This document shows positions 8,294-16,826 of a DNA stretch of 21,551 nucleotides, in pieces. The notes beneath the pieces were generated by a model. It did no database searches. It saw only the letters and a list, made by a program, of their open reading frames with translations, and was not told where the DNA came from. The DNA comes from Candidatus Heimdallarchaeota archaeon (GTDB lineage: Archaea > Asgardarchaeota > Heimdallarchaeia > JABLTI01). The translations under genes and the position numbers were made by a program. The DNA lies in the NCBI GenBank assembly GCA_019058275.1, contig JAHLVW010000023.1, positions 1 to 21,551 on the forward strand. Direction: 5' to 3'. Every line of letters begins with the position of its first letter. The first letter of the stretch is position 1.

Positions 8294-9040
8294 TCAGCTC
8301 CAATTTCGAGGATAAGGTATTGAATCAATAAACTCAAGAAAGAGATCAACTGTGTTTTCAATTTGTTCCTCTTCATATTCAAAGATAGACTCAAATTGCA
8401 TGCCTACATCTTTAATTTCTTCTCGTAAAGATAACCACAAAGTATTGTTTCTTGTTTTAGCTAAAAGTCTCAAAACATTCTCATTAGAAAGTAATTTTGT
8501 TGCCATTTTAACATTATTTGTTTTAATAATGAAAAATTCTTCTAGGAAACCAGTTGTAGGTATTGCTTTTAGTTCCATGAAATATTCTTGATCACCTTTC
8601 AGAACTTTCTTTCTTTTCTTAGATAAGATCTCAAGAGAAAAAGGTGGTCTTCTTCTGAGATTTGCTGAGAGTGTATATTTATCTTTACTTTTCTTTATCT
8701 TATCCCAAATAAATGCGATAAAGAAAGGTCTGCCCAATGGAATTCCAAGAACAACTAAGGACCTCATTGGTGCATCTTTTGTTGGGCGTGCTACTAATTG
8801 ATAACGTTCCTTCTCCTGTGTAACCTTCTCAAAAGATTCACAAATATCATTTAGTGGTACAGCGATTTTTGATAGCATTTCAAGAGCAAATTGCTTATTT
8901 TTCTTTTTACCAATTAGATAACTTGCCAAATATGCTCCTAGGATTAGAATTGAAGGAGATAATGCTATCACATATTGGGACCATTCAGCCATTGCTTTCC
9001 ACGAGGTTAATCTTGTGTAATATCTATTTAAATTTATCAT
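8294..9040 (-). CDS. CCDC47 / DUF1682 (PAT complex subunit)-like single-pass membrane protein
   Basis: One N-terminal TM followed by AYLASYLIGKKKNKQFA, resembling human CCDC47 AYIMNYIIGKNKNSRLA as I recall it. A colinear alpha/beta domain follows (LGRPFFIAFI...SKD; LEEFFIIKTN; VLRLL...TLWLSLRE; LFLEFID). The likely start is the ATG at 8992 (MAEWSQ). Confidence 0.65.
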   Translation of the reverse strand: MINLNRYYTRLTSWKAMAEWSQYVIALSPSILILGAYLASYLIGKKKNKQFALEMLSKIAVPLNDICESFEKVTQEKERYQLVARPTKDAPMRSLVVLGIPLGRPFFIAFIWDKIKKSKDKYTLSANLRRRPPFSLEILSKKRKKVLKGDQEYFMELKAIPTTGFLEEFFIIKTNNVKMATKLLSNENVLRLLAKTRNNTLWLSLREEIKDVGMQFESIFEYEEEQIENTVDLFLEFIDSIPYPRNWS

Positions 9041-9112: not shown

Positions 9113-9796
9113 CTATGTGTATAAACTAACCCAACCAGATTTTTTGATGTTTGGGGCATAAACAACACGTAATCTTCTTAGCAAAACACCATTTTCATCT
9201 TCAGAAGGTTGGAATTCAATCACTCCATCAACAAATGCTTTAATCCCTTGAATTACTTTTTCATCCATCATTCCTGAATGAGCAATAATCAATCCACTAT
9301 GTTTCTTCTGTTTCAATCTAGCAACTTGTGCTTGAATGAAATCTAAAATGGCTATGCCACTGTTGTAAATTGATAGAGTAGATACAGTGTTTATTACAAG
9401 TCTAAGTTTTTGTTTAGTATCGATCATCTTCTTGATTATAACGCTGAGACCTGTAAGATCTCTAATGTTATCAACAGCTAGCATACTTAGATCAGCTTTT
9501 TCACCTGTTCTATAAGAAAATATATCTATGAATTCCAATTGTTTAGCATCTAAAAATGGACTTGGATCTGTTCCTAGTTGTTTCATCTTTTCAATAATAT
9601 CATCAGGAAAATCATCAGCAGCAACGTAAATACCATTATTTTTTTCGGTAAAACCATCAAGCATGTACTGTAACGCAAATGCTTCTTTTCCTGCACCGGG
9701 TGGACCTACAATAAGATAGATTTGTGCATCTGTCTGTCCGACTAGATCCTTCAAATGGACGATATTACTACTTACTGACAACTTTAATTCCTTCAT
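9113..9796 (-). CDS. RAD55/KaiC-like single-domain RecA-superfamily ATPase with degenerate Walker motifs
   Basis: YLIVGPPGAGKEAF (Walker A, E at the T/S position), GIYV, LEFID.F, RLVINTVSTL (Walker B with D to N), VDGVIEF and RRLRV. Confidence 0.85.
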   Translation of the reverse strand: MKELKLSVSSNIVHLKDLVGQTDAQIYLIVGPPGAGKEAFALQYMLDGFTEKNNGIYVAADDFPDDIIEKMKQLGTDPSPFLDAKQLEFIDIFSYRTGEKADLSMLAVDNIRDLTGLSVIIKKMIDTKQKLRLVINTVSTLSIYNSGIAILDFIQAQVARLKQKKHSGLIIAHSGMMDEKVIQGIKAFVDGVIEFQPSEDENGVLLRRLRVVYAPNIKKSGWVSLYT

Positions 9797-9802
9797 TTAT
9801 TA

Positions 9803-10582
9803 CTAATTCACTTTTTTGATGTTTTTAAGCATATACTCCAAGATTGCCCAACCAAAATCATAACATCTTTCCGCAAATTCTGTTACATTGTTGATTTTTG
9901 CTCCCAATCTGAAATCTCGAGCATCTATAGCTACTTTGGGATCAACCTTAATCTTTACTTTCTCGGCAAATAGCTCCGGAACATTATACCTATTGAAGTT
10001 CTTTTCACCCATGAATATTAATAAAGCTTGAGCACAACCTATAGCTGCTTCACTTCCGTAAAATCCTAATTCATCTTGTGCATCAGCTGGAGCGTTTAGG
10101 AAGCCATCACGCATGATAAAGATATTATCAAGACATATTTGAGTGGCTCCTTTCTTGATTTTGTTTTCATTCACTTTTAATTTAACAAATGGATTTTCTT
10201 TACCGATTTTTAGTTCTCCTTGTTGACCCGTTGATATATGAACCCAATTAACAATACTTGATGCATTGATATTTTCTTCATTTAAATCCTCTTCGAAGAA
10301 GACCATTAGATCAAGTATAGATGAATACTGTGGATCATTTTCAAATTCTGCTTTTACCTTCCCGATTTTTTGTAGTATTTCTACTTGTTTATCTCGGTCT
10401 TTTTTAATTACTAAGTAGAAATCACAATCGGAATCTCCCTTAACATAATTTTTCTGTGCAACACTGCCAACGAGTAGTAAAGCAGTAATTTCATTTCCTA
10501 CTTCCTTCTTTAGTTTAGCAGTTAGTTTTAGTATTAAGGCATCATATTCGTCTGGAATTTTCCTTTTTGTTGGTGTGCTCAC
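9803..10582 (-). CDS. Pol-beta-family nucleotidyltransferase (MNT/KNTase-like) with C-terminal helical domain
   Basis: LLVGSVA..NY..GDSDCDFYLV (GS and DxD) and a third acidic residue in ILDLMV. The C-terminal helical bundle (SEAAIGCAQALLIFMGE) is HEPN/KNTase-C-like. GTG start with GGAGG at 10593-10597 on the minus strand. Confidence 0.8.
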   Translation of the reverse strand: MSTPTKRKIPDEYDALILKLTAKLKKEVGNEITALLLVGSVAQKNYVKGDSDCDFYLVIKKDRDKQVEILQKIGKVKAEFENDPQYSSILDLMVFFEEDLNEENINASSIVNWVHISTGQQGELKIGKENPFVKLKVNENKIKKGATQICLDNIFIMRDGFLNAPADAQDELGFYGSEAAIGCAQALLIFMGEKNFNRYNVPELFAEKVKIKVDPKVAIDARDFRLGAKINNVTEFAERCYDFGWAILEYMLKNIKKVN

Positions 10583-10670: not shown

Positions 10671-11507
10671 TCAGTCTTTTTCAGTCAAATCTTCAATCTT
10701 AAGTTTTTTCTCTTCCTCAGGTATTCGTTCAACAATCTTTTCTCTCTGTATGTTTTCTTTTATTATACAGATTTTTTGTCCCAAGTTAAGTTGAACATCG
10801 ATATCACCGATATTATATAGCTTTAGTAAAATATTGTAAACTTGCTCATCTGTTATTCCATACTCTTCAGCTATTTCATTGAATGTGATTTCAACAACTT
10901 TCTTCATTTCAAGTTCTTCAATCATTTCCTTAATTGATTCTTCTAACATATCAATTGGGAGAAATGTATGTAAGGATTTGATGTAATAACCTTCGACTTT
11001 CCCATCTGCAATTAAAGACATGAGTAGATCTTTAGTCACAGATCGTTTAAGCTCCAATTCATCAGCAACTTCATGAAGATCAACTTCAACACTAAGATTT
11101 ACTTGTTGGAAAAGTAGATCTAAGGCTGTTTTTCGGGTAATCATTTTACCATCTTTTCTGGAAAGCATGTTGATTCTATTACTTGCTATGAGTTTAATAA
11201 CATCAGCATTCCAATTATTTTCTTGGGCAATTTTATCTAAATCACAAATGCCTTTTGCTTTAATTAATCTTACAATATCCTTGACTTCAGAAGAAATAAG
11301 AGAAATATAAACTCCTTCAGGAATTATTACTGAACCAGTAACTTCATTGTTGTCGATCATTTTACTGATTTGAAATGCAAGGTACCTTCTTGCACTTTCT
11401 TCAAAAGGATTACCTAAATCTAAGTATTCAACATCTTTTATTGCTTTTAGGATATCTTTTTTCGGAATAGATTTCTTCTTCTTTTTGTCTTTTTTCTGAG
11501 AAGGCAT
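10671..11507 (-). CDS. Tandem winged-helix (PCI-like) protein resembling DDRGK1 C-terminus plus UFL1 N-terminus
   Basis: About four WH repeats (e.g. VDLHEVADELEL...LIADGKVEG; ITFNEIAEEYGI...LYNIGDID) and a Lys-rich N-terminus. Residues ~19-98 align by eye to the DDRGK1 WH region and residues ~103-124 to the UFL1 partial WH. GGAG precedes the ATG. Confidence 0.65.
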   Translation of the reverse strand: MPSQKKDKKKKKSIPKKDILKAIKDVEYLDLGNPFEESARRYLAFQISKMIDNNEVTGSVIIPEGVYISLISSEVKDIVRLIKAKGICDLDKIAQENNWNADVIKLIASNRINMLSRKDGKMITRKTALDLLFQQVNLSVEVDLHEVADELELKRSVTKDLLMSLIADGKVEGYYIKSLHTFLPIDMLEESIKEMIEELEMKKVVEITFNEIAEEYGITDEQVYNILLKLYNIGDIDVQLNLGQKICIIKENIQREKIVERIPEEEKKLKIEDLTEKD

Positions 11508-11752: not shown

Positions 11753-12061
11753 ATGGAATACCTTCACGCTTCATTAATTCTTCATTCCGCTGGAAAGAAA
11801 ATAACAGAAAAAGCCGTTGGTGATATACTCACAGCTGCTGGTGTTACACCAGACAAGAACCGAATCAAAGGTCTAGTTGCCGCACTTGCTGATGTTAAAA
11901 TCGAAGATGCTCTAAAATCTGCTGCTGTTATGCCTACTGTTACTGCTGCTCCAGCTGCAGCACCTGCTAAAGATGCTACTGTACCTGCTAAAGCTGCTGC
12001 TGCCACACCAGAACCAGAAGAGGAAGAAGAAGAATCAGGATTGAGTTCTCTCTTCGGTTAA
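11753..12061 (+). CDS. rpl12: Archaeal 50S ribosomal stalk protein P1 (L12)
   Basis: MEYLHASLILHSAGKKITE...L.AAGV, an Ala/Pro-rich hinge, an acidic tail and a C-terminal GLSSLFG. Confidence 0.97.
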   Translation: MEYLHASLILHSAGKKITEKAVGDILTAAGVTPDKNRIKGLVAALADVKIEDALKSAAVMPTVTAAPAAAPAKDATVPAKAAAATPEPEEEEEESGLSSLFG

Positions 12062-13463: not shown

Positions 13464-15110
13464 TCATTTGATGTCCCTTTGGATTATTTTCTCTTCAATT
13501 TCAATACCAATAGCCATTTGAACAACAGAATCTATTCTTTTCTTTCCTGATTTGTTTATTGATACTTGCATTCTTCTAAAATGTTTCATCACTAGCTCTC
13601 TAGCTTCTTCTCGAGAGATTTTTTTTCCATGACTATTAAAGATACCATAGATAATTGTCTCTCCTACTGAAACTTCATCATGAACAATATTTAAGCAACG
13701 TTGATACATTGATTGTATCTGCGAATCAAGAATTCTTCGAGCGTTTTTTACATCTTGTGATCTTAGACCTCTTCTTAAAGCAGCATCAATCATATTAATA
13801 ATATCTTTTTCAGGAATACCAAGGTCTAATTCTGTAGGTTCATCAGGAACAATTAGATCTTTTGGATCAGCTTTTATACTACCAACAATGTAGTTTAAGA
13901 CAAATTGTATCAAATAATCTAAAATAACAGCTTCTTGCATTTCCATATCTGTTGGTTTTTTTCCTTTGATCTTAAATCTGCCAAGAGCCCGGTTTAATCT
14001 TAATTTATCACTCTTGTAATATGTAGTAACATAATCGAAATGTTTTGGTATTTTACTTAGAAACTCTTGAGCCAAATTACAATAATCCATTAGCATCGCT
14101 AGAATTTCTCTGCCAATATTTAATGGTTGATCAGAAATTCTTGCTTCTTTCCATGCTTCAACTAAAATCTTCTCTGCTAACCCCTTCTTAGCTAGTTTGT
14201 CTTTATAGTTTAAAGTCAGGAGGTTATATTCCAATTTAGCTTGCGGAGTTGCTGTTGATAATCCTAAAGCTGATTCTAATTGAAATCTCATAATTAACTT
14301 GCCCATATCTTGCTGAGCTGTAAAATCACCTATTTTTTTCTCATATCTTTGAGAGAGTAACCATAAGATAATATCTGCAAGACCTTTAGAAGTCATCTCT
14401 TCTAAAGGTTGTTTTAAATCTTCATATAGAATTTCTGCTTCTATTATAGATCGAATAATCCAATTTGTTTGATCTGCATTTGCTAATATCTCTCCAAGGA
14501 CTTCTACTTGATCACTTAATTCTTTTTTAGCTTCCTTCATTTGTTTGGAAATATCTTTTGAACCATCTAAACCAATAATACTTGCATAGATTCTACTGGC
14601 TGCTACATATTCAATGGAACCAGCATGTTCCTCTACCCATTTCTCAATAACTGGTATGATTTTATTTGCTGCAATGAATTGTCTTTCCATCATTATTTGA
14701 GTTGCTAATGTAATTAAATCTGAATCTTTTAATTTACTCAATTTGGAAATAAGCGATTGGAAATTCTTAATGTCATCAACAAGGTTTTTTGCCAAAGTTC
14801 CTCTAAGAAAAGCAATCCATTTTCCTTCAGCAATAGCAAAATTGTACATATAAGTCTCTACTGGAGGAATATTACTATTAGCCTGTTCCAATCTTTTCAT
14901 TTCGTAGTAGAGATCTGCCAAAATTAACTTAGGTTCAATATCCAAATCATTGTTTAAAAGATAAATTACTCCCGCAAACTCTTGTGGACTATCATATTTA
15001 GCTGCAGTTTCAACTACTTTTTCTAAAGTTATTTTATCAACTCGGGTCAAGAGATCAGCAAAATTCTCTCCTAGTGGTATTCCTGCATTTTCCTGGTCTG
15101 AAAAGGACAT
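13464..15110 (-). CDS. Hypothetical soluble, predominantly alpha-helical protein
   Basis: 548-aa ORF with GGAGG at 15123-15127 on the minus strand; no TM segments and no motif recognised. Confidence 0.8.
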   Translation of the reverse strand: MSFSDQENAGIPLGENFADLLTRVDKITLEKVVETAAKYDSPQEFAGVIYLLNNDLDIEPKLILADLYYEMKRLEQANSNIPPVETYMYNFAIAEGKWIAFLRGTLAKNLVDDIKNFQSLISKLSKLKDSDLITLATQIMMERQFIAANKIIPVIEKWVEEHAGSIEYVAASRIYASIIGLDGSKDISKQMKEAKKELSDQVEVLGEILANADQTNWIIRSIIEAEILYEDLKQPLEEMTSKGLADIILWLLSQRYEKKIGDFTAQQDMGKLIMRFQLESALGLSTATPQAKLEYNLLTLNYKDKLAKKGLAEKILVEAWKEARISDQPLNIGREILAMLMDYCNLAQEFLSKIPKHFDYVTTYYKSDKLRLNRALGRFKIKGKKPTDMEMQEAVILDYLIQFVLNYIVGSIKADPKDLIVPDEPTELDLGIPEKDIINMIDAALRRGLRSQDVKNARRILDSQIQSMYQRCLNIVHDEVSVGETIIYGIFNSHGKKISREEARELVMKHFRRMQVSINKSGKKRIDSVVQMAIGIEIEEKIIQRDIK

Positions 15111-15356: not shown

Positions 15357-16826
15357 TTGAACGAAGAGGATTTGCCATTTAATTTAGAAACAACAGATAA
15401 GGAAATCGATAATAACCTAGTAAGTCATGAAGAGGAAGCTGGATTCTTTCGTAAAGCTTGGAAATGGTTGACTGAAGATAAAGAAAAACTAGGATCTATA
15501 ATATTTCTCTCTCTTTTTATTATTCTTATAATAGTTCTAGCAGCTCTAAATCTCAATCTTGGAGAAATAATGTCAAATATTATAGATTGGTTTTATGATA
15601 AATTAACCATTTGGGGTATCTATTTAGGAGTCTTTCTAATTTCGATTTTTGGCAACTTTACTGTCATTTTTCCTGTTCCCTATACTTTAGCTTTAATTGC
15701 TGTTGCTCAAGAAGATTATATTTTATGGTACCATATTTTAATAATGGGTTTATTTGCTGGTGCTGGAGCAGCACTAGGTGAAACATCTGCTTGGCTTTTA
15801 GGTAAAGCCTCAAAAAATGTAATCAAAGATGGAATGGAAAAACAAGTTGCAAGAGCTCAAAAATGGATTGATAAGGGTATAGCTCCAATAATGATCCTTT
15901 TATTTGCTGCTACACCACTACCTGATGATGCAATTTTAATTTTCATTGGTTTGTTAGGGTACGCTCTTTGGAAAACAGTTATATGGTGCTTTTTAGGAAA
16001 GATTATCCTAACATCATTCACTGGTTTAATTGCTAAATTCATCGGTGATACAAATACAGGTCAAGTAATTCTAAGATTATTTGGATTAACAGATCAGAAA
16101 ACTCCTGCATGGCAATCTGCTCTAACTTGGATTGGAACTATAGTTTTAATTGGAGTAATAATCTTTGTTGACTGGGGGGATGTATGGAATAAGCTTACCC
16201 GTTCAATGCTTAAAAGAAAATATTCTTTTTTAGTTAAAACAGATATAACACAGCAACAACCAACAATGGTTGCTTTAACGAGTGATTTAGCACCAGAAAC
16301 AGGGGTACCAGTCACTTCTGATAGTACATTATGGCAATGTGTTTTGCAAGATGAAAAGGAAGAACATCCAAATTACTTTGATTTCTATACTGTTTCATAT
16401 GTTTTAGGGAAATCTGCAAACATACTTTTGGAACCTGGTTGGTATGAAAAATTCGAGAATAATGTTTTAGAAAAGCGTTTCTTGAAAACTAATCACTATA
16501 AATTACAAAAAATCATTACAGGTAAAGAAACTCCAGAAGAAGATGAAGAAACTCAAGATATGCAAGATGATATAGCTGATAAGATGATGTATGTATCATT
16601 TAATTCAATGCATCCTGAGACAAATAAAAACTACAAAATTGGATTTCTACTTGAACGACTTCCTGAAGATAAGCTAAAAATAAAGTGTATTAGTGAAAGA
16701 GAAGCTTTAGCAATTAAAAGCTTTAAATCAGTTCATTCTGAATTGGTCCTGTCAAAGCTAGTCCTTTTGTTAAACAATCTGTCAGACAACCCTGAAAGTG
16801 TTAAGAAAGCTACTGTTGCATTCTAA
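15357..16826 (+). CDS. DedA/VTT (SNARE-associated; VMP1/TMEM41 superfamily) membrane protein with long C-terminal soluble extension
   Basis: N.T..FPVP re-entrant motif, GAGAALGETSAWLLG, FAATPLPDD...I..G and FLGK. TTG start 8 nt after GGAGG (15344-15348). About 200 aa of hydrophilic tail. Confidence 0.85.
   Translation: MNEEDLPFNLETTDKEIDNNLVSHEEEAGFFRKAWKWLTEDKEKLGSIIFLSLFIILIIVLAALNLNLGEIMSNIIDWFYDKLTIWGIYLGVFLISIFGNFTVIFPVPYTLALIAVAQEDYILWYHILIMGLFAGAGAALGETSAWLLGKASKNVIKDGMEKQVARAQKWIDKGIAPIMILLFAATPLPDDAILIFIGLLGYALWKTVIWCFLGKIILTSFTGLIAKFIGDTNTGQVILRLFGLTDQKTPAWQSALTWIGTIVLIGVIIFVDWGDVWNKLTRSMLKRKYSFLVKTDITQQQPTMVALTSDLAPETGVPVTSDSTLWQCVLQDEKEEHPNYFDFYTVSYVLGKSANILLEPGWYEKFENNVLEKRFLKTNHYKLQKIITGKETPEEDEETQDMQDDIADKMMYVSFNSMHPETNKNYKIGFLLERLPEDKLKIKCISEREALAIKSFKSVHSELVLSKLVLLLNNLSDNPESVKKATVAF

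Follow-up and report, generated by a model that had tools for sequence, protein, structure and literature searches.

Because UFL1 and DDRGK1 fold only together, via a common composite winged helix (WH), an archaeal protein that resembles both raises the question of whether the two halves of this pair can lie in one natural chain, and whether such a chain is the form from which the eukaryotic pair arose. The window considered here, that is, the whole 21,551-nucleotide stretch that was analysed, contains an open reading frame at 10671..11507 (-) for which a first-pass annotation, made from sequence alone, had proposed this: a possible unsplit ancestor that later underwent gene fission. The ORF itself is real. 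It was confirmed exactly in the ORF list and by translation (278 aa plus stop; P0001), and ~60 homologues of 276-286 aa, with 47-100% identity, have the N-terminus in common and an unbroken frame.

P0001 consists of four tandem PCI-type winged helices preceded by a Lys-rich N-terminal tail and followed by a conserved acidic C-terminal peptide (Table 1). The N-terminal tail is predicted to be disordered (pLDDT <50 over residues 1-11), and K10, K11 and I14 are invariant across homologues. WH-B is modelled as helix 72-85, strand 87-88, helices 90-96 and 101-111, and strands 114-116 and 122-124; its first half (72-99) parallels the C-terminus of DDRGK1 and its second half (100-124) parallels UFL1 36-58, with a DGK..IT wing turn common to the latter half and UFL1 52-58. 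WH-C matches UFL1 WH1 and WH2 equally and eS25 weakly (E 0.01). WH-C and WH-D are acidic (charge count: 17 K/R+... 13 K/R versus 25 D/E). The C-terminal peptide is the most conserved segment of the protein (mean column conservation 0.84; P263, K268, L269, I271, E272, D273 and L274 invariant), despite being predicted as disordered (pLDDT <50). The same motif was found in no other protein of the genome and is also missing from the 252-aa relatives described below; it is probably a docking motif.

Table 1. Parts of P0001 and neighbouring genes in the window
Feature	Coordinates	Strand	Basis or remark
Lys-rich N-terminal tail	11463..11507	-	residues 1-15; 7 K/R, 1 D/E
WH-A	11295..11462	-	residues 16-71; predicted secondary structure; occupies the DDRGK1 WH1' position
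WH-B	11136..11294	-	residues 72-124; complete winged helix at the eukaryotic composite pWH'-pWH position
WH-C	10956..11135	-	residues 125-184; predicted structure; lowest conservation among the repeats
WH-D	10758..10955	-	residues 185-250; Pfam PCI above cut-off, 24.4 bits, residues 179-250
C-terminal acidic peptide	10674..10724	-	residues 262-278; consensus IPEEEKKLEIEDLT.K
Downstream gene 1, 259-aa nucleotidyltransferase-like	9803..10582	-	weak Polbeta and NTP_transf_2 matches; 88 bp after the ORF
Downstream gene 2, 227-aa KaiC/RecA-type ATPase	9113..9796	-	PF06745, 3.8e-25; 6-bp gap
Downstream gene 3, single-pass membrane protein, CCDC47 homologue	8294..9040	-	Pfam and fold; 72-bp gap
Ribosomal stalk protein P1, divergent neighbour	11753..12061	+	Ribosomal_60s, 3.5e-13

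The predicted structure (four WH with the boundaries of Table 1; pLDDT 80.7) points to the UFL1-DDRGK1 platform. The best Foldseek match is 8b9x, an engineered human DDRGK1(207-305)-UFL1(27-200) fusion (boundaries from Banerjee et al., 2023, PMC10702826), with an E of 2e-9 over 251 columns, followed by ribosome-bound UFL1 (4.6e-8 to 1.2e-6); SelB (1lva, 1.8e-3), Odin Vps25 (7e-3) and CSN (1e-2 or weaker) rank lower, so that the platform leads by about six orders of magnitude and the superposition suggested by the first-pass annotation came out in its favour. In the VIA comparison with 8b9x (Z 12.9), 236 of 255 residues were aligned collinearly, model 9-251 to chain 0-254, placing four WH onto four WH in the order DDRGK1 WH1', composite pWH'-pWH, UFL1 WH1 and UFL1 WH2, with a complete WH predicted where the composite domain had been anticipated. 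The proposal that both halves occur in the right order in one chain is thus borne out by the collinear superposition, but it is weakened by the fact that UFL1 alone fits nearly as well one WH off (E 4.6e-8, model 40-263 to UFL1 29-265). A shape search of the ESM Atlas gave UFL1-type clusters a TM of 0.46-0.48 versus 0.35-0.38 for Rpn6, CSN2 and SelB, and the closest named clusters in a language-model search were E3_UFM1_ligase (0.78-0.82), which we treat as a lead only. UFL1-type entries are therefore at the top of all three fold or feature searches.

Like P0001, the human DDRGK1 (UFBP1)-UFL1 platform (8b9x; 8ohd, 8qfc, 9gy4) comprises four consecutive WH in ~250 residues and in the same order, but it is built from two chains rather than one. 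Identity between the two is ~12-16%; the wing of WH-A reads TPEGV at the position of the DDRGK motif, and DDRGK1 Arg265, the role of which is described in PMC10937380, aligns in the HMM alignment to the near-invariant Glu64 of the 278-aa family. The basic N-terminal tail and the acidic C-terminal motif are additions relative to the human platform. The engineered DDRGK1-UFL1 fusion folds as a monomer (PMC10702826), and a natural single chain is therefore physically plausible.

Three human fragments quoted in the first-pass annotation proved exact, namely, DDRGK1 249-299 (parallel a), UFL1 36-58 (parallel b, with residues 103-124 of P0001) and UFL1 209-228 (parallel c, with residues 214-233). 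Parallel (a) gives one match to the family HMM (HMM 48-96, 10.0 bits, conditional E 1.8e-5 for a one-sequence search) and a Smith-Waterman score of 53, versus 33, 27 and 22 at the remaining WH junctions, which was reached by none of 2000 shuffles. Parallel (b) scores 36 versus 17-23 elsewhere (9 of 2000 shuffles), and parallel (c), which lies in UFL1 WH3 and is the best sequence parallel of WH-D, scores 42 versus 13-20 elsewhere (0 of 2000). Each parallel is above chance and each is in its best register within P0001. What did not hold is their mutual register: the offset to UFL1 is about -67 for (b) and -5 for (c), a gap of one whole WH, so that the two are not collinear, and HMMER gives both registers equal and very weak scores (2.3 and 2.4 bits). 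These comparisons set the family HMM against human sequences, the retrieved UFL1 set consisting of near-identical mammalian sequences only. The same fragments are matched as well or better by other Asgard WH arrays.

P0001 shows no significant similarity to the human proteins when judged at database scale. Its best BLASTP alignment with human UFL1 has an E of 0.03. The family profile searched against all PDB sequences found eS25 and MCM WH on top (E 0.01); DDRGK1 followed in a shifted register (E 0.49), and neither UFL1 nor 8b9x was among the matches. An exhaustive profile search with the 278-aa family recovered other Asgard WH arrays and no eukaryotic UFL1 or DDRGK1 at E 1e-3; at E 1e-4 to 1e-3 the profile also collects ordinary wHTH regulators.

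The Pfam results run against the specific claim of an unsplit ancestor. On P0001, PCI (PF01399; gathering cut-off 22 bits) outscores E3_UFM1_ligase (PF09743; cut-off 23.2 bits), with 24.4 versus 18.1 bits (E 0.0022), an outcome that the first-pass annotation had itself listed as speaking against its reading, and DDRGK (PF09756; cut-off 27.8 bits) does not match P0001. Instead of the expected adjacent, non-overlapping DDRGK and E3_UFM1_ligase matches, the latter model pairs residues 67-196 with its positions 113-245, which is two WH from the proposed register. Some orthologues narrowly exceed the PF09743 cut-off (24.7-26.7 bits), which P0001 does not reach. The best DDRGK score among orthologues, 25.4 bits (residues 19-98 on profile 104-184), is below the cut-off, as is each of the five members listed, in which residues 18/19-98 align to profile 103/104-184. 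Across the family, PCI matches 25 of the 26 members (best E 5.2e-9), E3_UFM1_ligase 23 (5.4e-6) and DDRGK 10 (1.3e-5), and EAP30 matches a single member (0.0025). Given that the DDRGK model also rings in the Escherichia coli, Sulfolobus and Methanosarcina control genomes, its weak matches are not specific. Overall, three UFL1 registers appear in the Pfam, VIA and HMM comparisons, and the register remains ambiguous.

P0001 is not a UFM1 ligase. As the first-pass annotation had noted, neither a TM anchor nor a UFL1 alpha1-like helix is found in the sequence or the model: just 15 residues precede WH-A, and in WH-B the second helix passes to the third via a 4-residue turn, with no alpha1-like helix before or inside the domain. 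The chain ends 28 residues past the fourth WH, and UFL1 WH3-WH5 are absent, as is the C-terminal domain, which reaches the tRNA sites. The missing alpha1 is the helix by which UFL1 binds the E2 UFC1 (PMC10702826, PMC10937380); of DDRGK1, the long helix and the UFM1-binding motif are likewise lacking. Searches of the genome (92.8% complete) returned no match to Ufm1 (PF03671) or to UFC1 (PF08694, a model without a positive control among the control genomes), no PF09743 match at E 1e-3 or better, no PF09756 match and no homologue of the P0095-like UFL1 type described below. Whatever the function of P0001 is, it must be UFM1-independent, in agreement with the earlier proposal.

Among 301 Asgard genomes, the 278-aa form is confined to one genus and a 252-aa four-WH relative (P0068, MHA1396383.1, 'Candidatus Heimdallarchaeaceae') to one neighbouring family; the remaining five families of the class yielded neither. 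The 252-aa family, of which 28 of 31 genomes carry a single copy, is collinear with P0001 over residues 40-230 (27% identity, E 3e-8) and matches E3_UFM1_ligase with 34.7-47.3 bits in an unchanged register, but it lacks the conserved C-terminal peptide and has a different gene neighbourhood. Single-chain Asgard proteins closer to UFL1 than the 278-aa family exist. On PF09743, the Ranarchaeia protein P0095 reaches 72.8 bits (residues 120-313, profile 30-221), and its BLASTP E against human UFL1 34-196 is 2e-9; a P0095 search of the 301 genomes gave matches to its C-terminal domain only. In the Odinarchaeota proteins P0064 and P0066, DDRGK (6-92) is followed by E3_UFM1_ligase (103-294, profile 29-223), both above cut-off. 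An attempt to bridge the register via P0066 was abandoned: pairwise BLASTP shifted the alignment by one WH (142-208 to 84-150), and transitive register arguments are therefore unsafe. We also set aside a 785-aa ORF of contig C22, which matches a WH weakly and belongs to no Pfam family.

The longer Asgard WH arrays, whose UFL1-like domains are already catalogued in the asCOGs (Makarova et al., 2024, PMC10936438), are, like P0001, single-chain tandem WH proteins restricted to Asgard archaea and match the same trio of PCI, E3_UFM1_ligase and DDRGK models. They differ in carrying extra modules and in scoring 35-73 bits on PF09743/PF09756 versus 18-27 bits in the 278-aa family, which consists of just four WH domains and tails of its own. 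Taken together, architecture and homology show P0001 to be a minimal and distant relative, made of one chain, of the WH platform that the C-terminus of DDRGK1 forms with the N-terminus of UFL1. We read the 278-aa family as one offshoot of a wide Asgard radiation of UFL1/DDRGK1/PCI-like WH arrays, not as the direct ancestor from which the eukaryotic pair arose.

That Asgard archaea naturally encode single chains with an identical four-WH order indicates that an unsplit form is viable and renders the fission scenario testable. The 278-aa family is the smallest such form and, being soluble and devoid of every ligase-specific part, offers a convenient way to study the role of the platform prior to UFM1. 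Its value is tempered by the existence of the closer UFL1 relatives, by its own restriction to one lineage and by the Asgard origin of UFL1 and DDRGK1, which Picchianti et al. (2023) have already reported.

As for its role, we tentatively favour, with a probability of about 0.45, a soluble four-WH adaptor, distantly related to the DDRGK1-UFL1 platform, that by analogy docks on a large ribonucleoprotein. P0001 would then be non-catalytic, its WH array and basic tail would most probably dock to large ribosomal subunits close to the membrane, and the near-invariant, disordered C-terminal peptide would fold on a partner and recruit it. Ribosome docking is suggested by the human complex, in which every WH domain but DDRGK1 WH1' contacts the 60S subunit (PMC10937380). 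A credible, if unlikely, alternative is that the likeness reflects a shared PCI-type WH only and that P0001 is an oligomerisation or scaffold subunit of a non-ribosomal Asgard complex (lid/CSN/eIF3-like or ESCRT-linked), acting through WH-WH contacts. The first rank of PCI in Pfam fits this, as do the superpositions of its single WH domains on those of CSN, Rpn and eIF3 (Z 10-11.6, rmsd 1.3-3 Å) and the fusion of many related Asgard arrays to Vps28, adaptin-ear, beta-propeller or ABC modules, fusions with which asCOG cog.003822 is annotated (PMC10936438). However, unlike in true PCI proteins, no WH of P0001 is preceded by a helical solenoid, and over the whole chain PCI proteins fall far behind UFL1-DDRGK1 both in Foldseek and in the Atlas search (TM 0.36-0.38 for PCI proteins).

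Tandem WH domains could also read nucleic acids, in the manner of a transcription or chromatin factor or of a SelB-like reader of RNA elements, with the Lys-rich tail aiding binding. We regard this as improbable. Weak matches to TrmB, MCM_WH, sigma-70 r4, Rrf2 and similar families, the Lrp or DtxR labels of some members in source annotations and the eS25 and MCM domains heading the PDB search point in this direction, and outside UFL1 the full-length fold is matched best by the SelB C-terminal 4xWH fragment; yet the regulator matches are all below the family cut-offs and span one WH each, a family-specific DNA-binding signature was looked for and not found, and the acidic WH-C, WH-D and C-terminal tail are ill-suited to a simple DNA binder. 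The whole-chain scores of SelB and of ESCRT-II Vps25, the other tandem-WH comparison, are far weaker than those of UFL1-DDRGK1. That the 278-aa family is itself the unsplit ancestor, or its direct descendant, is very improbable, even with the collinearity to the engineered fusion, the monomeric state of the latter and parallels (a) and (b) flanking the would-be fission point: its distribution is narrow, P0095, P0064 and P0066 are closer to UFL1, PCI outranks E3_UFM1_ligase, parallel (c) requires the loss of one whole WH, and its exhaustive profile search brought no eukaryotic UFL1 or DDRGK1 to E 1e-3.

Downstream of P0001 and in the same same-strand run lies the gene for a CCDC47 homologue. 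The Pfam CCDC47 model matches 14 of its 15 family members (best 1.2e-8), and the AF2 model (pLDDT 78) matches 7tm3_4 (Foldseek 5.7e-9, TMq 0.65) as well as 6w6l_7 and 9i78_4. The homologue is widespread in the class, and since we found no paper mentioning CCDC47 together with Asgard archaea, it may be the more novel observation of this locus. On the 60S subunit, CCDC47 docks in a manner similar to that of the UFM1 ligase complex (PMC10937380, Extended Data Fig. 3k). One could imagine that P0001 and the CCDC47 homologue form one archaeal module that docks to large ribosomal subunits where these meet the membrane translocon, a pre-UFM1 form of ribosome-translocon surveillance with the NTase-like and KaiC-like proteins as enzymatic components, of which the WH part was later split into DDRGK1 and UFL1 and coupled to UFM1; this scenario strikes us as hardly likely. 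The gene cluster is conserved within family f1 only, where synteny reaches unrelated metabolic genes, and ten genomes from other families have the CCDC47-like gene but no WH4, NTase or KaiC homologue within 8 kb of it. Synteny was rejected as functional evidence, the neighbourhood of the 252-aa relative being different in a complete genome; a KaiC-family gene beside that relative has only the Walker region in common with the KaiC-like gene of the window. The NTase-like gene is syntenic in loci L001 and L003, and the divergent, P1-facing arrangement is kept in both.

The open reading frame at 10671..11507 (-) is a genuine gene of 278 codons; its roughly 60 homologues (276-286 aa, 47-100% identity), all from Heimdallarchaeota and Asgard metagenome bins, share a common start and contain no frame breaks. 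The window (GC content 30-34%) is on contig C9 of a 4.12 Mb genome with a completeness of 92.8%. Given 26 family members as input, AlphaFold2 predicts four winged helices (WH) in tandem (mean pLDDT 80.7, pTM 0.65), with disorder at residues 1-11 and 255-278. The N-terminal tail is basic, with Lys or Arg at 7 of 15 positions. The C-terminal 17 residues (family consensus IPEEEKKLEIEDLT.K) form the best-conserved segment of the protein (mean column conservation 0.84 versus 0.61 in WH-C), and a motif search detected no second occurrence elsewhere in the window's genome. Disorder combined with near-invariance in a terminal peptide is typical of docking motifs.

Predicted domains of the WH protein and genes of the same-strand run
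Feature	Length	Position	Strand	Remarks
WH-A		residues 16-71		AlphaFold2 model
WH-B		residues 72-124		AlphaFold2 model
WH-C		residues 125-184		AlphaFold2 model
WH-D		residues 185-250		AlphaFold2 model
NTase-like gene	259 aa	9113-10582 (pair with KaiC-type gene)	-	gap to preceding gene 88 bp; weak Polbeta/NTP_transf_2 matches
KaiC-type ATPase gene	227 aa	9113-10582 (pair with NTase-like gene)	-	gap to preceding gene 6 bp; PF06745 3.8e-25
Single-pass membrane protein gene	248 aa	8294-9040	-	gap to preceding gene 72 bp; CCDC47 homologue

The first-pass annotation had drawn parallels between this protein and the human UFM1 ligase subunits, and the fragments it cited are all exact, corresponding to DDRGK1 249-299 and to UFL1 36-58 and 209-228. 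For each fragment the site it named is also the best one by Smith-Waterman score: 53 versus 33, 27 and 22 for the DDRGK1 fragment at residues 47-98 (reached by 0 of 2000 shuffles), 36 versus 17-23 for UFL1 36-58 at residues 103-124 (9 of 2000) and 42 versus 13-20 for UFL1 209-228 at residues 214-233 (0 of 2000); the sequence observation therefore stands. The family HMM places the DDRGK1 fragment at HMM positions 48-96 only (10 bits, conditional E 1.8e-5). The two UFL1 parallels are shifted relative to each other by one whole WH, HMMER comparison with human UFL1 ties two registers (103-218 to 36-148, 2.3 bits; 132-236 to 127-230, 2.4 bits), and the Pfam E3_UFM1_ligase profile favours a third (residues 67-196 on profile 113-245). 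Given these competing registers, the signal is better ascribed to UFL1-type repeats as a class than to one-to-one orthology of individual domains.

The closest PDB match of the model in Foldseek comparisons is 8b9x (2e-9, with 251 columns aligned to a chain of 255 residues), a fusion of DDRGK1 207-305 to UFL1 27-200 with four WH, the second of which is composite (PMC10702826). It is followed by ribosome-bound UFL1 (8ohd and 8qfc, 4.6e-8; 9gy4, 1.2e-6), with other tandem or PCI WH proteins far weaker (SelB, 1.8e-3; Odin Vps25, 7e-3; CSN, 1e-2 or weaker). VIA-align superposes model residues 9-251 on positions 0-254 of the 8b9x chain, with 236 residues aligned (Z 12.9), and the composite WH proposed in the first-pass annotation has its counterpart in a predicted complete WH at residues 72-124, where eukaryotes place the composite domain. 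UFL1 alone also fits, shifted by one WH (model 40-263 to UFL1 29-265). In the ESM Atlas shape search, two eukaryotic UFL1 clusters (TM 0.47-0.48) and a 788-aa Promethearchaeota cluster (0.46), 97-100% of whose members carry PCI, E3_UFM1_ligase and DDRGK, ranked over Rpn6, CSN2 and SelB (0.35-0.38).

Profile tests are less favourable to a specific DDRGK1-UFL1 assignment. In the window protein, the generic PCI profile scores highest and passes its cut-off at 24.4 bits, E3_UFM1_ligase stays under its own at 18.1 bits, and the Pfam DDRGK profile has no match; a PCI score equal to or above that of DDRGK/UFL1 is what the first-pass annotation had named as refuting its reading. Across the 26 family members, PCI is matched in 25 (best 5.2e-9), E3_UFM1_ligase in 23 (best 5.4e-6) and DDRGK in ten (best 1.3e-5, none above its cut-off). 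Because DDRGK (PF09756) also has matches in the control genomes of Escherichia coli, Sulfolobus acidocaldarius and Methanosarcina acetivorans, in one of them above cut-off, weak prokaryotic matches are not specific evidence of DDRGK1 homology. As had been stated, the UFL1 alpha1 helix and the DDRGK1 transmembrane anchor are absent; so are the long helix and the UFM1-binding region of DDRGK1. DDRGK1 Arg265, which touches UFC1 (PMC10937380), is aligned with a near-invariant Glu of the 278-aa family, and a profile search of the window's 92.8% complete genome returned no match to Ufm1, UFC1, PF09743 or PF09756.

The proposal that the protein represents an unsplit ancestor of DDRGK1 and UFL1, later separated by gene fission, has to be weighed against its relatives. 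An exhaustive family-profile search of 1.84 billion representatives yielded 65 proteins with E no higher than 1e-3, of which two are members of the family; among the other 63, scanned with Pfam, there is no canonical eukaryotic UFL1 or DDRGK1. All matches with a named source are Asgard (Odin-, Hel-, Prometh- and Ranarchaeia, and Heimdallarchaeaceae); the majority of the 63 match PCI, E3_UFM1_ligase and DDRGK jointly, and many are fused to further modules, including a Vps28 C-terminus, beta-propellers, an ABC ATPase and LRR. One such fusion, asCOG cog.003822, is listed as "E3 UFM1-protein ligase 1 domain" (Makarova et al., 2024, PMC10936438). Judged by sequence, several of these relatives are clearly closer to UFL1 than the window protein is. 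The top PF09743 score (72.8 bits, residues 120-313 on profile 30-221) belongs to P0095, a 605-aa protein of Ca. Ranarchaeia (MHA1917833.1) with 26% identity to human UFL1 34-196 (BLASTP, E 2e-9), in which the HTLD.K.YIT wing is kept. Since about 117 residues, whose sequence pattern is suggestive of one WH together with the missing half, precede the pWH-equivalent point, P0095 looks like a natural single-chain protein combining the DDRGK1 position with UFL1; no such protein was found in the window's genome. In the Odinarchaeota proteins P0064 and P0066, DDRGK (profile 97-182) at residues 6-92 is followed by E3_UFM1_ligase (profile 29-223) at 103-294, both above cut-off. Natural single-chain DDRGK1-then-UFL1 arrangements thus exist, with better examples among them than the 278-aa family.

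The 278-aa form itself was found, among 301 Asgard species genomes, in the window's own genus alone (9 of 9 genomes). A collinear 252-aa relative without the C-terminal tail (27% identity, E 3e-8) is present as a single copy in 28 of 31 genomes of a neighbouring family and was not found in any of the class's remaining five families. The first-pass interpretation is partly supported. The window protein is related to the DDRGK1-UFL1 WH platform as a minimal form that is single-chain and independent of UFM1. It represents a side branch of a known Asgard radiation, restricted to its lineage, and its status as an ancestor is not demonstrated. An Asgard origin for UFL1 and DDRGK1 had previously been put forward by Picchianti et al. 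(2023). Our literature search found no paper on the 278-aa family, none that proposes the fission and none that connects CCDC47 with Asgard archaea. Both the 278-aa gene and a 257-aa version of the 252-aa type (G123:C96:2894-3643, E 1.3e-52) occur in one genome belonging to the window's genus; the 257-aa copy may be a paralogue or may stem from contamination of the bin (genome contamination 4%). Contig C22 of the window's genome carries a 785-aa ORF (L019:463-2820, +) with a weak family-profile match (residues 122-204, E 3.4e-5), for which no Pfam family reaches E 1e-4.

CCDC47 is a subunit of the eukaryotic PAT/multipass translocon that docks on 60S. The WH gene, divergent from that for ribosomal stalk protein P1, opens a same-strand run in which the NTase-like and KaiC-type genes separate it from a CCDC47 homologue, an order kept within the family. 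Pfam CCDC47 matches 14 of 15 members of the family of this 248-aa membrane protein (best 1.2e-8), and the top three Foldseek matches of its AF2 model (pLDDT 78) are ribosome-translocon chains, 7tm3_4 (5.7e-9, TMq 0.65), 6w6l_7 and 9i78_4, which, judging by their lengths and the Pfam match, are probably CCDC47; CCDC47 is present in 7tm3, its 60S docking resembles that of the UFM1 ligase complex, and every WH of the latter except DDRGK1 WH1' contacts the ribosome (PMC10937380). The WH protein most likely serves as an adaptor: its basic tail and its array of WH domains would mediate docking, possibly on the ribosome, and its C-terminal peptide would recruit a partner. The link to the CCDC47 homologue is suggestive, though weak. 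Conservation of the cluster extends down to 48% identity, but flanking unrelated genes are kept equally. Of 83 genomes from the class, 60 contain a CCDC47-like gene, and in ten genomes of other families it had no WH4, NTase or KaiC neighbour. Synteny of the gene for a 548-aa protein without a Pfam family (13464-15110, -) extends to the most divergent relatives, and the adjoining gene (15357-16826, +) encodes a 489-aa VTT-domain membrane protein of the VMP1/TMEM41/DedA type.
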